From assembly GCA_963820525.1 (NCBI GenBank), contig CAWGAA010000001.1:2592001-2656000 (forward strand): DNA of 64,000 bases, given 5' to 3'. Each line of letters opens with the position of its first letter. Position 1 is the stretch's first letter. This document shows, piece by piece, positions 15,001 to 21,000 of the stretch. The position numbers were made by a program. Origin of the DNA: an uncultured Spirochaetota bacterium. Its GTDB lineage: Bacteria > Spirochaetota > Spirochaetia > SZUA-6 > Fen-1364.

Positions 15001-18000
15001 GGTCAACGAGAACTCCAACATGGGCTACTCGCTTCAGGGCCTGAACAACTACGTCTCCTCGGAGATCTCAAAGATCTACTGGCTGAACAAGATCTACCCG
15101 CCCGAAATCCGCCTTGCGCACAGCGACGGGGACTTTCACATCCACGATCTGGGCATCCTCTCCGTCTACTGCGTGGGCTGGGACCTTGAGGACCTGCTCC
15201 TGCAGGGATTCAAAGGGGCAATGGGAAAGGTCGAAAGCAAGCCCGCCCGGCATTTCGCCAGCGCCCTCGGTCAGATCGTCAACTTCTTCTATACCCTCCA
15301 GGGTGAAGCGGCGGGCGCCCAGGCCTTTTCTCATTTCGATATGTTCCTCGCCCCCTTCATCCGCTTCGACCGCCTCGACTACGAAGAGGTGAAGCAGGCG
15401 CTCCAGGAGTTCGTTTTCAATGTCAACGTTCCAACGCGGGTCGGCTTCCAAACCCCTTTCACGAATATCACCATGGATCTGAAGGTCCCCGCCATGTTCC
15501 GGGACAAGTCGGTAATCGTCGGAGGGGAATACCGCACGGAAACGTACGGCGAGTTCCAGCGCGAGATATCCATGCTCAACAAGGCGTTCCTCGAGGTCCT
15601 GGCCGAGGGGGATGCCAAGGGCAGGGTCTTCACCTTCCCGATTCCCACCTACAATATCACGAAGGACTTCCCCTGGGACGATCCCGACCTGGAGGTCCTC
15701 TGGCGGGTCACGGCGAAGTACGGGATCCCCTACTTCTCCAACTTCGTGAACTCGGACATGTCACCCGAAGATACCCGCTCGATGTGCTGCCGGCTACGCC
15801 TCGACCTTCGAAGCCTCGAAAAGAGGGGCGGCGGCCTGTTCGGGGCGAACCCGCTCACAGGATCGATCGGCGTGGTAACCATAAACATGCCGCGATTGGG
15901 GTACCTGTCGGCGGACGAGGAGGAGTTTATCGGGAGGCTCGGGGAGCTCATGGAGCTGGCGAAGAGCAGCCTGGAAATAAAGAGAAAGATACTTGAGCGT
16001 TTCACGGAGAGAAACCTCTACCCCTATACGAAACACTACCTGCGGGGAGTCCGCGAGAGATTCAGCCAGTACTGGAAGAACCACTTTTCGACCATTGGCC
16101 TGGTCGGACTCAACGAGGCGAGCATGAATCTCCTGGGGACCCACCTGGGAACCGAGAAAGGCCAGCTCTTCGCGATGAGAGTGCTTGAATACATGAGGGA
16201 GAAGCTCCTCCAGTTCCAGGAAGAGACGGGGAGCAACTACAACCTCGAGGCTACCCCTGCTGAAGGCGCCTCCTACAGGCTTGCCCGCCTCGACAGCGAA
16301 AAGCTCCCGGGCATCCTTTCGGCCAATCTGAACGGCACTGAAGCCGGGGCCAAGCCTTTCTACACCAACTCATCGCAGCTTCCCGTGCAATATTCCGAGG
16401 ACATCTTCGAGGTTCTGGATCTGCAGGACGAGCTTCAAACCCGCTACACCGGCGGGACGGTTCTGCACCTGTTCATCGGAGAGGAGATCAAGGCACCCCG
16501 CAGCGTGACAGGGCTCGTCAAGATGATCTGCAGCCGCTACCACCTCCCCTACTTCACCATCACCCCGACGTTCAGCATTTGCCCCGTCCACGGCTATCTG
16601 TCCGGCAAGCAGGAGACATGCCCCCACTGCGGAGCGGCGGCCGAGGTCTATTCCAGAGTCGTGGGATATCTCAGGCCCGTCAATCAATGGAACGAAGGGA
16701 AAGTGGAAGAGTTCAAGTACCGAAAGACTTTCAAGCTGTCGTAAAGAGGGGACTCACCCCCATTCGAGGCGATCCGATCCATGGTTGTCGGTGGATTTCA
16801 AAAGTTCTCCCTTGTTGATTATCCTGGAAAAATCAGCGCCATCGTCTTCACCCAGGGCTGCAATTTCAGATGTCACTATTGCCATAACCCGGAGCTGGTC
16901 GATCCACAGCGCTACGCAACGCCAATTTCCGAAGACTTCATAGCTTCATTCCTTAATAAAAGAATGGGAAGGCTCCAGGGTGTCGTGATCAGCGGAGGTG
17001 AACCTACCGTACATGCAGACCTTCCCTTTTTCATCGAAAAGCTCAGATCCCTCGGATACTCGGTGAAGCTCGACACGAATGGGAGCAACCCGCAAATGCT
17101 CGAGAAGATCATCCAGGACCGCCTTGTCGACAGCATCTCCATGGATATCAAGGCACCCCTCCCCTCCTATGCCAGGATCGCGGGGGTTTCGGTGCGAACA
17201 GAAGACATCGAGCGCAGTATCCACCTCATCATGGAAAGCGGGCTTCTCTCTGATTTTCGAACTACGTACCTCGACTCCCTGCTCTCCATTGAGGATATGA
17301 AAAGCATCGGCGAGATGGTCATGGGATGCTCGAACTTTACCCTTCAGCGATTCGTTTCCACGAAAGCGCTTCAGAGAGAAGTTCTGTCGCAACCCTCGCC
17401 TTCCACGGAGAAGCTGGCAGACATCCAGGCCTTGCTCCTGGCCATGGGAGTCCCTTGCAGGCTCCTCTGATTCTCAGCCCAGAACCACCTGCTCGGCGGT
17501 GCAGATAACGTTATACAGCTCGAGCGGAGTAGCTGCAGTCTCCAGCCTGCCTTCAAGAAACTCGCTTTCAAAAATGCCAGCGATATGGGAGAGGAGAATC
17601 TGGTGAATGCGCGGCGTATCAGCGGGAGTCAGAAGCAGGAAGAGCAATGAGATGCTCTCCCCGGCAGCCGGCGCGGGAATAGGCGACTTGAGCCGGGCGA
17701 CAATCACCATTGGATTGGCCAGGATCATCAGACGTGCATGGGGGATGGCGAGCCCCTTGCCGATATAGCTGCTGCCCAGTTTCTCCCGTTCGATTACTGA
17801 AAGCATTATCGCCTCTCGCGACAGCGGAAGATCCGAAGCCCTGATATTCTGGAGGGCGTTTCGAGCGGCTGACAGGATGCTGTCTCCTTCCACCTCCAGG
17901 AAGGTCCGTTCCACGGACAGCAGGTCCGAGAGGCGAACGGGCGGTTCGATCGGATACTCTTCTTCGATCGTTCCGATGACCTCTTCGATCGCGTCCTCCA

Positions 18001-21000
18001 GCGTGATGATCCCTGTCCATGCCCCGTCCTTAGCGAAGACGAGCGCCATGTGGCAGGCTTTCCTCTGCATCTCCGAGAGCAAATGCTCCAGCGGATGCTC
18101 TTCTCGCGCCTGGAGACAGGGACGTATGAAAGGCCGCAGATCGTCAGTAGGCTTTCCTGCCCTGTCGGCGAGAAACAGGTCTTTTACATGGATATATCCC
18201 AGGGGTTTTTCGGAATCCTTTTCAATTACCGGGTACCTGGAAAAGCGGTTCTCTCCGATCAGTTTCTCCGCTTCGGCGCGCGACATCCCCAACCGGAGGA
18301 AGCGTACGAGCCTTCGAGCGCGCATCGCGTTCCTGACGGTCAGGGCGCCCATGTCGAGAACGTTCTCGATGTGGAGGAGCTGGCGGAATGAGAGCATCCC
18401 GCTGGACTGGGAGTGATCGAGGATGATCCTGATCTCGTCTTGCGTGTGGGCCCCCGGCCCGCTCACAAGGGGGAGGCGGAAGAGACTGAGTATGGCGTTC
18501 ACAGTCGTGTTGAGAAGCCAGATGGGAACGATGAAGATGGAGCGGAAGATCATCATGGGGTAAGCCATGAGCAAGGCCAGCCTCTCGGTGTCTCGGATGG
18601 CGATTGATTTCGGGACGAGCTCGCCCAAAATGATGTGAAGATATGAGACAAGGAAATACGCGATCGCGATGGCGACCGCATGCGATGTTATCCGGGTTGC
18701 GACTCCCGTTATCCCCACAATGGAAACGGCTGGCTCGATGAGCGCCGCAAAGGCCGGTTCCCCGACGAACCCCAATCCGATGCTGGCGAGGGTGATCCCG
18801 ACCTGGCAGACGGAGAGAAACTCGTCAAGATTCGCCTGGATTCGCTCCACCAACCTGGCCCTTCGGTTGCCTTTGGCCGCTAGAGATTCCATGAGGGTTG
18901 GACGGGCTTTAATCGCGGTCAATTCAGCCAGTACGAAGAAAGCGTTCAGTACCAGGAGAAAGACCGCAATAAGGAGATACAAGCTAATGAGCATTGTGCA
19001 CCTCGAGCTCTTCGCGCTCCGCTATTCAAAATCGCATGCAGAGGATCTGCCTGCGATACGTTCTTCTACCGGCTATTAGATTATGTCCTGGGGGAAATGA
19101 AAAGTGCCATCGGGCATCGACAAGAACGGGATCGAAGTGAATGCCGCTTTGCTCCTTGATGATGGTAATCGGGGATTCATGGGAGAGAGGCTGCTTGTAG
19201 ACGCGGCGTGAATCCCGTCTTGGTACTGATCAATCACGCCCTTCGTATAGGCGCTCAGGAAATCCAATGTTTCACGTGAAACACTCGGGAGGGGTTCCGC
19301 TCGCCTACTCAGGGGTACCGGGTTCTGATTCTTCCGAATCGGCTTTCTCTTCCTGGTCCGATGGTTGGCCCTGCTCGCTTTCTTCCTCTTCCTTGACGAC
19401 ACGGGCCACTCCGACAACGACATCCGGCTTGGTGATATTGACGATCCGCACTCCCACCGCGGTCTTTCCAAGCGCGGCGATGTCCGAGAGGCGAAGCTTC
19501 AGAGCATTGCCCTGGGAGGTGATGCAGACAAGATCGTCCCTGGTGCTCACGGAAAGAACACCCACCACCTCGCCGGTCTTCTCCGAGGCCTTATAGCAGA
19601 TCTGGCCGCGAGTTCCCCTGCCATGGGGAGAGAAGTTGTCGTACTCCGTGCGCTTGCCGAAGCCGAACTCGCACACCAGGAGCATCTGCTCTCCTTCCTT
19701 GACCATGGCCATGCCGGAAAGCTCATCCTTGTCCGAAAGACGGATCCCCAGCACCCCCCGGGAGGATCTGCCGGTGGCACGCACTGCCTCCTCATTGAAA
19801 CGAAGGGCATTGCCCTTGCGCGTGACGAGCACGATCTCGTTCTTCCCCGAGGTGAGCTGCGCGGTGACCAGACCGTCTCCCTGATCCAGCTTGATGGCGA
19901 CGATGCCCCTCGCTTTGGCGTTGGCGAAATCCGAGATTGCGACCTTCTTTACCACGCCCTTGCGGGTGGCCATGAACACGTACTTCTCATCCGTGAAGTT
20001 GCGCAGGCTGACGATTGCGGTAATCTCCTCCTCGCTTCCCAGGGAGAGCAGAACCTTGATGCTCTGGCCTTTTGCCTGCCGCGTGCTCTCCGGGATTTCA
20101 TGAACCTTGATCCAATACGCGAGTCCCTTGTTGGTTATGCAAAGCACGTAGTCGTGGGTTGAAGCGATGAAGACCTGCTCGATGAAATCGTCTTCCTTGA
20201 GGTTGGCCGATGAAGAACCCTTTCCGCCCCTGCCCTGCCGGCGGTACGCCGTAACGGGGATCCGCTTGATGTAGCCGCGGTTGGAGATGAGAATGATCAT
20301 GTCCTCTTCCGCGATCAGGTCCTCGATGTTGATCTGCTCGGCTTCCTCCTCGATGATCTCGGTCCTTCTGTCGTCGCCGAACTTCTCGGATATCTCCTGA
20401 GTCTCCTCCTTCACCACCCCGAGAATCTTCTGCTCGCTTGAGAGAAGGTCTTTGAGGTGATCGATAAGAGCCAGCACCTCTTTCAATTCATCAAGGATTT
20501 TCTGGATCTCCAGCCCCGTAAGCCGCTGCAATCTCATGTCGAGAATCGCCTGGGCTTGCTTCTCCGACAGCTTGAACCGTTCCATGAGAGCCAGCCGCGC
20601 CGCTTCGGGGTTCGCCGAGCCCTTGATGAGAGCGATCACCTCGTCGATGTTCTCGACGGCGATCTTGAGCCCCTCCAGGATATGCGCCCGCTCCTCGGCC
20701 TTGGCCAGATCGAACTTCGTCCTCCTGGTGACCACTTCCTTCCTGTGGGCCATGAAGCAGTCGATCATGTCCTTCAGCCCGAGAATCTTGGGAAGTCCGT
20801 TCACTAAAGCGAGGTTGATCACTCCGAAGGAAATTTGAAGCTGCGTATGAGCGAACAGCTGATTCAAGATCACCTTGGGCGAGATGCCCTTTCGAAGATC
20901 TATCACGACCCTCATCCCATGCCTGTCAGACTCATCGTTGAGATCCACGATCCCGTCTATCTTCTTTTCCTTGACCAGGTCCGCGATCCGTACGATCATG

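Follow-up and report, generated by a model that had tools for sequence, protein, structure and literature searches.

The window analyzed here, a stretch of 64,000 nucleotides from an uncultured Spirochaetota bacterium, encodes a transporter of the CNNM/CorB type in which a PTS EIIA domain with an intact phospho-histidine site stands in the place of the CorC domain. The EIIA tail probably makes ion export switchable by carbon-energy status, and the reading that we prefer, and judge slightly more likely than not, is that HPr phosphorylates His419 of a cation exporter and thereby biases its CBS Mg-ATP switch. The fusion joins known parts in a new way and is already visible in automatic labels, as the survey had said of the two domains; our literature search, which did not extend to the reviews likely to list EIIA fusions, found no prior paper on a CNNM-CBS-EIIA protein.

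Domain organization and the phospho-histidine site

The gene is a single stop-free ORF on the minus strand (18994-17474), with stops in the plus frame (Table 1). The PTS_EIIA_2 profile scores 63.9 bits against the protein (Pfam cut-off 27), and CorC_HlyC (PF03471) has no Pfam match in it, PF00359 standing there instead, although the second CNNM of the same genome does have a CorC_HlyC domain. The domain replacement claimed in the survey's finding is thus borne out, and so are two of its counts: all 120 of the homologues listed carry both PF01595 and PF00359, and the protein, said to be identical in five assemblies, represents a cluster of five member sequences. GC and GC3 of the gene (0.573/0.708) are close to those of its neighbors (0.526-0.579/0.648-0.792) and hence give no sign of recent transfer.

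Table 1. Features of the fusion gene and its surroundings, as positions in the window.
Feature	Position	Strand	Details
Fusion gene: CNNM membrane domain - helical bundle - CBS pair - PTS EIIA	17474..18994	-	506 aa
CNNM (DUF21) transmembrane domain, residues 8-201	18392..18973	-	Pfam, E 2e-42; alignment to MtCorB
Helical bundle (AHB position), residues 184-214	18353..18445	-	Helix 2 carries the family signature F/L-x-R-L-L
CBS pair, about residues 217-345	17960..18346	-	MtCorB alignment; structure comparison
PTS EIIA domain (PF00359, PTS_EIIA_2), residues 358-497	17504..17923	-	Pfam and fold comparison; PtsN closest
His419 codon, predicted phospho-acceptor	17738..17740	-	Aligns with E. coli PtsN His73
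gyrA and gyrB, upstream neighbors (context only)	19305..23830	-	gyrA 19305-21812, gyrB 21857-23830
nrdD and nrdG, convergent downstream neighbors (context only)	14576..17470	+	
Perfect 16-bp palindrome between gyrA and the fusion gene	19268..19283	.	Ascribed to the origin region, not the transporter

The best structural match of the EIIA domain is EIIA-Ntr (4gqx; Z 19.4, rmsd 2.2 over 150), and IIA-Mtl (1a3a) gives Z 15.3; its scores lie below the cut-offs of the PtsN equivalog (TIGR01419, 60.1 vs. 138.7 bits) and of fructose IIA (TIGR00848, 33.4 vs. 103.5 bits). Arg403, Glu404, His419, and His464 align with PtsN Arg57, Glu58, His73, and His120 and with their counterparts in IIA-Mtl and FruB. 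As H73 is given as the PtsN phosphorylation site in a passage of PMC5024086, the motif that the survey described as intact is so by alignment as well. His419, Arg403, and Arg421 are kept in all 315 full-length close homologues (106/106 after an 80% filter). Among distant members, taken as 50%-identity representatives, 47/52 keep the histidine and 46/52 the histidine together with the Arg-Glu pair, a set that persists down to about 30% identity. The five representatives in which His419 is replaced retain the EIIA domain, three of them having lost Arg-Glu also; these losses are scattered and partly concern fragments, one of which (P0314) switches to an aberrant tail at that point. Only 19 of 51 distant representatives have the second histidine, His464; 29 have Gln there.

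AlphaFold models residues 183-506 as one unit with a mean pLDDT of 93.3 and a pTM of 0.85 (no control fold alongside; 91.7-93.3 across five models), the bundle being predicted to pack as two helices together with the CBS pair and the EIIA domain. An intact phospho-histidine site and a confident model of EIIA on CBS together make direct control plausible. The full-length model from the close alignment reached a pTM of 0.51, with the bundle at low confidence. Predictions of EIIA (352-506) in complex with the host HPr scored 0.01 in two runs (mark 0.32), a result that we regard as neutral, and in a shallow coevolution analysis (150 rows, effective 82) EIIA-CBS/bundle pairs made up 54 of the top 150 vs. 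about half of all pairs, i.e., no enrichment.

Family range, host PTS, and gene neighborhood

Independent full-length copies, each about 500-510 aa long, number in the hundreds and occur in Spirochaetota, Lentisphaeria/Verrucomicrobiota, Planctomycetota, Myxococcota, Fibrobacterota, and Elusimicrobiales. In a tree built on the CNNM-CBS core only, with EIIA left out, a branch (FastTree 0.952; SH-aLRT 87) separates the fused proteins from the rest, and they have in common bundle and CBS residues that are rare among CorC-tailed relatives; Arg205, for instance, is found in 80% of fused proteins vs. 2% of those relatives, where Glu is mostly present. The CNNM-CBS-EIIA fusion therefore probably arose once. 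The bundle-CBS-EIIA module, its signature included, is also attached to TerC, an unrelated membrane domain, and the histidine motif is absent from one of eight full-length TerC fusions examined.

The host genome encodes EI, HPr, and HprK once each, as had been claimed, together with seven PF00359 domains; EI lies in the region of C2:410475 and HPr in that of C1:2662392, and the HPr retains His15, Arg17, and Ser46. The further claim that sugar PTS permease domains are absent stands for PF02378, PF02302, and PF03613, which had no match in the genome (PF00358, PF00367, PF03609, and PF03610 lay outside this search), but not for PF03611 (EIIC-GAT), which has a single match in an orphan gene at C1:849928-851064. 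Both EI and HPr are encoded in 50/50 fusion carriers tested. We rejected this co-occurrence as support for PTS control, as it does not discriminate: HPr is found in 148/151 genomes of the class and the fusion was matched in only two of these.

The gene had been described as lying directly downstream of gyrBA. Both gyr genes do precede it on its own strand, but between gyrA and the gene lie 310 bp that include the palindrome. We take this palindrome to be of the parS type, and a parS-type palindrome is the conserved upstream motif at spirochaete fusion loci. A functional linkage to gyrBA was rejected on examining 80 fusion loci: clusters of gyrA, gyrB, nrdD, and nrdG each occur at 16 of the 80, all of them spirochaete, and at 0/61 others. 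The adjacency is spirochaete origin-region synteny only and says nothing specific on transporter function. Our Rfam scan of 26/80 fusion loci found no riboswitch upstream of the gene in the window (a single chance match, E 0.83), none in 11 loci, and tRNAs only in 15 loci. Neither a metal riboswitch nor a conserved functional neighbor that might hint at the substrate was present among the loci examined, and a scan for promoters and terminators gave 0 and 2 sites, the same as shuffled sequences.

Transporter core and candidate cargo

A CNNM membrane domain followed by a CBS pair is the arrangement of CNNM/CorB transporters, and the protein is like MtCorB (PDB 7m1t), TpCorC, S. aureus MpfA/MpfB, and B. 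subtilis YhdP (TC 1.A.112) in having DUF21, the bundle, CBS domains with ATP-site residues, and the Glu/Pro/Lys of the pi-helix. The latter residues, Glu125, Pro128, and Lys129 (MtCorB Glu111, Pro114, and Lys115 in TM3), are present in 315/315 close homologues and, with Glu24 and Gly124, are conserved in fused proteins as in unfused relatives. The CBS pair resembles PDB 7msu (Z 18.4, rmsd 1.5 over 123), and its ATP-site residues Phe251, Ser252, Arg253, Ile329, Thr331, and Asp334 correspond to MtCorB Phe233, Ser234, Arg235, Ile311, Thr313, and Asp316; Arg253, Thr/Ser331, and Asp334 are each kept in 315/315 close homologues, and the position of MtCorB Thr207 is a variable one, Arg225 in the fusion protein. 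The bundle contains 5 acidic residues in 31 vs. 13/31 in MtCorB. Bundles of fused proteins are far less acidic than that of MtCorB and carry the Arg-Leu-Leu signature of the fused clade, but the idea of a fusion-specific loss of acidity was rejected on medians of 6/31 in 49 fused proteins and 7 in 83 unfused relatives.

Where a section of PMC7875539 lists S43, S47, N90, G129, and E130 as the Mg2+ ligands of TpCorC, the fusion protein has by alignment Asn17, Val21, Ile67, Gly124, and Glu125, so that Gly124/Glu125 are the only exact matches to the five TpCorC/MtCorB ligands. The two nonpolar positions, which with the replacement of CorC_HlyC by EIIA set the protein apart from MtCorB and TpCorC, are invariant among close homologues. 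The CNNM/CorB architecture in the survey's finding holds, but Mg2+ as the cargo is not established, because two of the five known ligands are nonpolar.

We nonetheless lean toward Mg2+ as the most likely cargo and otherwise would expect another di- or polyvalent cation. That PTS control holds and the cargo is instead a polyamine, as for PaeA, or Co2+/Mn2+ or some other cation is a reading we take seriously but rather doubt. Val21 and Ile67 stand in place of TpCorC Ser47 and Asn90, and S47A reduces export by TpCorC (shown in a section of PMC7875539); PaeA, which has the same core and exports polyamines (PMC13691977), is the best NCBIfam match (NF052568, 153.6 bits, far under the cut-off of 500) and exemplifies, with CorB, one architecture serving different cargo. 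Weighing against such a cargo, the N/T-V-I ion-site pattern is general in the unfused CorC-tailed relatives (Val in 83/83), which include Bacillota proteins of Planococcus, Paenibacillus, and Mammaliicoccus, i.e., the branch where the Mg2+ exporters MpfA, MpfB, and YhdP would be expected; MpfA Thr19 corresponds to position 17 of the fusion protein (in a portion of bioRxiv 2021.02.11.430706). Moreover, the pattern of E. coli PaeA differs (Ser, Ser, Leu, Ala-Asp), and its core identity to the fusion protein is 26%, compared with 29-38% for the unfused relatives. A cargo other than Mg2+ concerns the substrate only and is compatible with the proposed regulation by HPr at His419.

Proposed control by phosphorylation and comparison with known systems

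We propose that the protein is a secondary cation exporter of the CNNM/CorB type whose single chain receives two regulatory inputs, presumably acting as a dimer. The CBS pair would bind Mg-ATP, as those of MtCorB and TpCorC do, and the EIIA domain would occupy the CorC place, predicted to pack on the bundle-CBS module. His419 is very likely phosphorylated, by a path from PEP through EI and HPr, and as the hosts are mostly without classical sugar permeases its phosphate would have no EIIB acceptor, and His419 would therefore report the state of the PTS. Once phosphorylated, the protein would likely be altered in transport, the modification changing the contact of EIIA with CBS and bundle and shifting the balance between the open and closed forms of the CBS dimer, and with it export. 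The CBS dimer of CorB is described as a large ATP-driven switch in part of PMC8242095, and in a portion of bioRxiv 2021.02.11.430706 the CorB C-terminal domain touches CBS2 and its deletion in MpfA blocks Mg2+ protection.

It is feasible, but in our view unlikely, that EIIA serves chiefly as a lid in the place of CorC, with a structural, ligand-binding, or partner-docking role, and that phosphorylation is incidental; its conserved Arg/His pocket could in that case bind a phosphorylated metabolite or anion. The survival of the domain in the five representatives without the histidine is consistent with a lid, as is the rigid packing predicted for residues 183-506, and the EIIA fold is also that of the cytosolic domain of SLC4 transporters (BTR1, 7x1g, Z 13.9, with weak Band_3_cyto matches). 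Retention of the full His and Arg-Glu set by most distant members, the scattered nature of the losses, and the presence of EI and HPr in every carrier tested argue instead for phosphorylation. More improbable still is a signal running in reverse, with CNNM-CBS sensing Mg2+ or Mg-ATP and setting the accessibility of His419, so that the protein would act as a phosphate sink anchored in the membrane, or as an EIIA output on other regulatory-PTS targets. Such a role would suit a host that has seven PF00359 domains but a single HPr, a single EI, and no match to classical EIIC/EIIB, as well as the ATP-driven CBS switch and the non-canonical ion site; the conservation of the five transporter-typical residues speaks against it, and that the module has also passed to TerC, another transporter fold, is more readily understood as transport control. 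An error of assembly or gene calling, or a recent fusion that arose by chance and has no function, might be suspected from the fact that all 80 listed genome loci come from metagenome-assembled or uncultured records, but is refuted by the number of independent copies across phyla in a single clade, and we consider it negligible.

The proposed control by HPr at His419 has a partial precedent in LacS of streptococci and lactobacilli, a non-PTS transporter with a fused EIIA-Glc-like domain phosphorylated by HPr, which a passage of PMC10710835 calls the sole such example; according to it, no other transporter of bacteria is known to be controlled by direct phosphorylation. Both are non-PTS secondary transporters with their own C-terminal EIIA, the phospho-switch being predicted here, but LacS has another transporter fold, a sugar cargo, an EIIA of the Glc rather than Ntr/Fru/Mtl class, and no CBS nucleotide switch, and its phospho-control is shown by experiment, whereas that of the fusion protein is a prediction. 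The domains found, CNNM, CBS, and PF00359, are not the sugar symporter core and EIIA-Glc of the LacS type, EIIA-Glc being what we take to be a separate family (PF00358). In E. coli, unphosphorylated PtsN inhibits YcgO (CvrA) via the YcgO CorC domain (PMC11808508). The same EIIA class thus acts on a cation exporter, and its proposed binding site is the very domain replaced in the fusion, but PtsN acts in trans on a CPA1 K+/H+ antiporter, whereas the fused EIIA is in cis on a CNNM with no CorC left. Salmonella/E. coli PaeA (CNNM-CBS-CorC) and MgpA/MgpB (TerC-CBS-CorC) form an architecture pair that the fusions mirror with EIIA for CorC; the protein is not PaeA by NCBIfam cut-off or ion-site residues.

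PMC13691977 describes the molecular role of the CorC tail in bacterial CNNM transporters as unknown. A naturally occurring protein with a phosphorylatable EIIA in the place of CorC offers a simple handle on that role and on direct transporter phosphorylation, and the fusion names a concrete candidate output for the PTS of Planctomycetota and their relatives, in which permeases are few (PMC2405797). We tentatively raise the possibility that bundle-CBS-EIIA is a portable two-input gate (Mg-ATP via CBS and PEP-driven PTS via phospho-histidine) plugged onto CNNM and TerC and serving PVC bacteria and free-living spirochaetes as one output of a sugar-independent PTS, the CorC slot being a regulatory input onto the CBS switch. 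If so, it would represent direct in-cis histidine phosphorylation of an inorganic-ion transporter and a bacterial equivalent of the control that PRL exerts on animal CNNMs. The likeness to PRL phosphatases, also phosphorylation-dependent regulators on a CNNM, is an analogy only, PRL being an unrelated protein that acts in trans by other chemistry; its binding to the CBS pair is seen in the titles of PDB entries 6wus and 5k22.

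A CNNM-CBS protein with an EIIA tail

The survey's finding of a CNNM-CBS protein with an EIIA domain instead of CorC was borne out by a single open reading frame of 506 codons, by Pfam matches each over cut-off (CNNM 8-201, CBS, and PTS_EIIA_2 358-497) and by searches of solved structures, in which residues 4-340 matched MtCorB and the tail matched PtsN proteins. CorC_HlyC had no Pfam match in the 506-aa protein; the second CNNM protein of the host genome has the ordinary CNNM-CBS-CorC order. The fusion gene is part of the replication-origin region: it follows gyrB-gyrA, is convergent with nrdD-nrdG, and has parAB and dnaA-dnaN-recF nearby. 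Its nearest named homologs belong to the Spirochaetia, and its neighborhoods are lineage-specific, as clusters of gyrA, gyrB, nrdD, and nrdG each occur in 16 of the best 80 of 293 loci, all 16 of them spirochaete.

The tail most resembles EIIA-Ntr, both by sequence and by fold (Z 19.4 with an rmsd of 2.2 across 150 residues, vs. Z 15.3 for IIA-Mtl), and scores under the PtsN equivalog cut-off. Across 12 aligned EIIA rows, including E. coli K-12 PtsN, MtlA IIA, and FruB IIA, residues Arg403, Glu404, Pro418, and His419 are invariant (12/12). His419 aligns with PtsN His73, reported as the phosphorylation site (PMC5024086), and the phospho-histidine motif is intact, as had been claimed; His464 aligns with the second histidine of PtsN and IIA-Mtl. 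When five sequences shorter than 440 aa were removed from 320 close homologs, all 315 remaining full-length proteins (106/106 after an 80% identity filter) had His419, Arg403, and Arg421. A distant set, consisting of the query and the top 150 of the 50%-identity representatives, contained 53 EIIA carriers, and the acceptor histidine is present in 47 of the 52 having a residue at that column (46 with His and Arg-Glu, three without both, two without His only, one without Arg-Glu only). The site is therefore under strong selection, yet not invariant. The second histidine position of the distant members holds His in 19/51 and Gln in 29.

Coordinates of the fusion gene and associated features (G000, host genome; C, contig; L, locus)
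Feature	Location	Observation
CNNM-CBS-EIIA gene	window 17474-18994 (-)	
parS-type palindrome	window 19268-19283	Perfect; sole match to the pattern used in the host genome; one or two copies upstream of the fusion gene in aligned spirochaete loci
679-aa ORF	window 29186-31225 (-)	Downstream of dnaA-recF block; no Pfam or NCBIfam match; may be the shadow of an overlapping plus-strand ORF
Stand-alone EIIA (PF00359)	window 43450-43935 (-)	Between NeuB-family and GAPDH genes, same strand
Lone EIIC-GAT permease (PF03611)	G000:C1:849928-851064 (L098)	Genome without PF02302 IIB match
EIIA-DacZ-type diadenylate cyclase	G000:C1:1669400-1670851 (L004)	PTS_EIIA_2, DacZ_P, DAC; Pro-His intact; one of seven PF00359
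EIIA with C-terminal extension	G000:C3:545301-546146 (L006)	Extension of ~130 aa, unannotated
Fusion near PTS cluster, deltaproteobacterium	G048:C9:1526000-1544000 (L221)	~4.6 kb from rpoN-hpf-ptsN-hprK-rapZ-EIIAman-HPr-EI, opposite strand; single case
Tandem CNNM-CBS-EIIA paralogs	L062:3659-5248 and 5968-7497	One planctomycete contig
TerC-CBS-EIIA	P0294, P0388; L141-L145, L147-L149, e.g., L144:4001-5896	Bundle signature as in CNNM fusions; in L144 adjoins another TerC gene, secDF, and an amino-acid permease-Usp gene

Range and origin

The fusion is real and widespread; its function is a prediction. Scanning species genomes yielded 293 confirmed stretches, of which the best 80, tabulated by title, comprise 37 Planctomycetota, 19 Spirochaetota, 14 Lentisphaeria/Victivallales, four Verrucomicrobiota, two Myxococcota, one Fibrobacterota, one deltaproteobacterium, and two unplaced records, all 80 being metagenome-assembled or uncultured. 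Elusimicrobiales are also among the carriers, and two ESM Atlas clusters (91 and 63 members) are named for the three domains. Within the host's class the fusion is patchy, with 1/150 other genomes matched at E<=1e-15 and that copy 5'-cut by a contig edge. In metagenome assemblies, the copy is broken across two frames in L052 and L057, and its start is displaced in L024; either sequencing error or decay may account for this.

Trees were built on the CNNM-CBS core alone, the unfused rows being the best matches of a fused profile. Fused rows grouped together in FastTree (143 rows, support 0.952); the group also took in four short rows of 337-398 aa that lack EIIA and were interpreted as fragments. 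With these and a TerC fusion removed and the unfused rows subsampled, IQ-TREE (94 rows) gave the grouping an SH-aLRT of 87. The fusion likely, though not provably, arose once.

That databases auto-label the two domains held for JGI, which labels both automatically. Full-text literature searches returned no paper on the CNNM-CBS-EIIA fusion, as judged by title or abstract start; prior mention is possible, because three reviews (Barabote and Saier 2005, Deutscher et al. 2014, Galperin 2023) reportedly list EIIA fusions to non-PTS proteins.

PTS context, candidate regulation and cargo

The host genome has a single copy each of EI, HPr (with His15/Arg17/Ser46), and HprK, alongside seven PF00359 domains. 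The three PTS proteins had been noted in the survey and stand, but the accompanying claim of no sugar PTS permease domains requires amendment for the lone EIIC-GAT; PF02378, PF02302, and PF03613 had no match in this genome (96.7% complete). The EIIC-GAT family also matches in Bacteroides thetaiotaomicron, where control searches for HPr and EI had no match. Among 50 carrier genomes chosen across phyla from the 80 best loci, HPr and EI were each found in 50/50 and EIIC over cut-off in 2/50, a content consistent with the regulatory type of PTS reported from Planctomycetes and their relatives (PMC2405797). Presence of HPr and EI is permissive rather than specific, since HPr occurs in 148/151 genomes of the host's class.

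In MtCorB, the CBS pairs are reported to dimerize upon Mg-ATP; when Mg-ATP is absent, the bundle is bound to CBS2, and locking of the transporter has been proposed (bioRxiv 2021.02.11.430706, PMC8242095). The reported ATP-site residues, Phe233, Ser234, Arg235, Ile311, Thr313, and Asp316, map by alignment to Phe251, Ser252, Arg253, Ile329, Thr331, and Asp334 of the fusion, with Arg253, Thr/Ser331, and Asp334 conserved among its homologs, and the CorB-type CorC domain is described as contacting CBS2 (bioRxiv 2021.02.11.430706). We lean slightly toward a reading in which EIIA would take the CorC slot at CBS2 and HPr-dependent phosphorylation of His419 would shift the CBS dimer/lock equilibrium, thereby tying cation export to PEP status. 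LacS is a reported, tested precedent for such a design (PMC10710835). As unphosphorylated PtsN is reported to inhibit efflux by YcgO (PMC11808508), the unphosphorylated EIIA may, by analogy and as a guess, be the off state. That EIIA is instead a lid acting independently of phosphorylation seems unlikely to us, and that the protein is a sensor feeding the PTS, more unlikely still.

Transport of a cargo other than Mg2+ is a possibility to be taken more seriously, if not one we favor, and is compatible with the proposed PTS regulation. The pi-helix residues Glu125, Pro128, and Lys129 are retained, and the five reported Mg2+ ligands of TpCorC (S43, S47, N90, G129, and E130; PMC7875539) correspond to Asn17, Val21, Ile67, Gly124, and Glu125. 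The pattern is not fusion-specific, as Asn/Thr, Val, and Ile/Val occupy the same positions in 83 unfused CorC-tailed relatives, including Planococcus, Paenibacillus, Sporomusa, and Mammaliicoccus proteins. We infer that this branch is MpfA/MpfB/YhdP-like, members of which have been linked to Mg2+ export (PMC6711546, PMC8242095); Thr19, the sole MpfA residue compared, falls at query position 17. The ion-site patterns of E. coli PaeA and YfjD differ from that of the fusion. Mg2+ is our best guess for the cargo, not a result, because PaeA and CorB reportedly differ in cargo despite one common architecture (PMC13691977).

The bundle-CBS-EIIA module and a TerC counterpart

AlphaFold modeling of residues 183-506 on a 150-row diverse alignment gave a mean pLDDT of 93.3 and a pTM of 0.85. 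By the definition of the score, this value for lobes of ~165 and ~155 residues suggests that the orientation of the bundle-CBS and EIIA lobes to each other is fixed with confidence. Modeling of the whole protein from a close alignment reached a pTM of only 0.51, with a poor bundle. Arg205 occurs in 80% of fused members vs. 2% of CorC-tailed relatives (Glu in 48/83), and Leu206, Leu207, Glu210, and Trp239 are likewise common to fused members and lacking in those relatives; these residues could form a docking face, or merely reflect shared ancestry. The query itself has Gln205 and Arg239, with Arg204 adjoining position 205.

A TerC membrane domain is fused to the same bundle-CBS-EIIA unit, signature included, in two collected homologs, P0294 and P0388, and this architecture forms a 173-member cluster. 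The P0294 search, with 80 metagenome loci listed, gave eight full-length matches and one running off its contig; 7/8 full-length matches keep Arg-Glu and Pro-His. The CNNM-CBS-EIIA and TerC-CBS-EIIA fusions thus mirror the described pair of CNNM-CBS-CorC and TerC-CBS-CorC.
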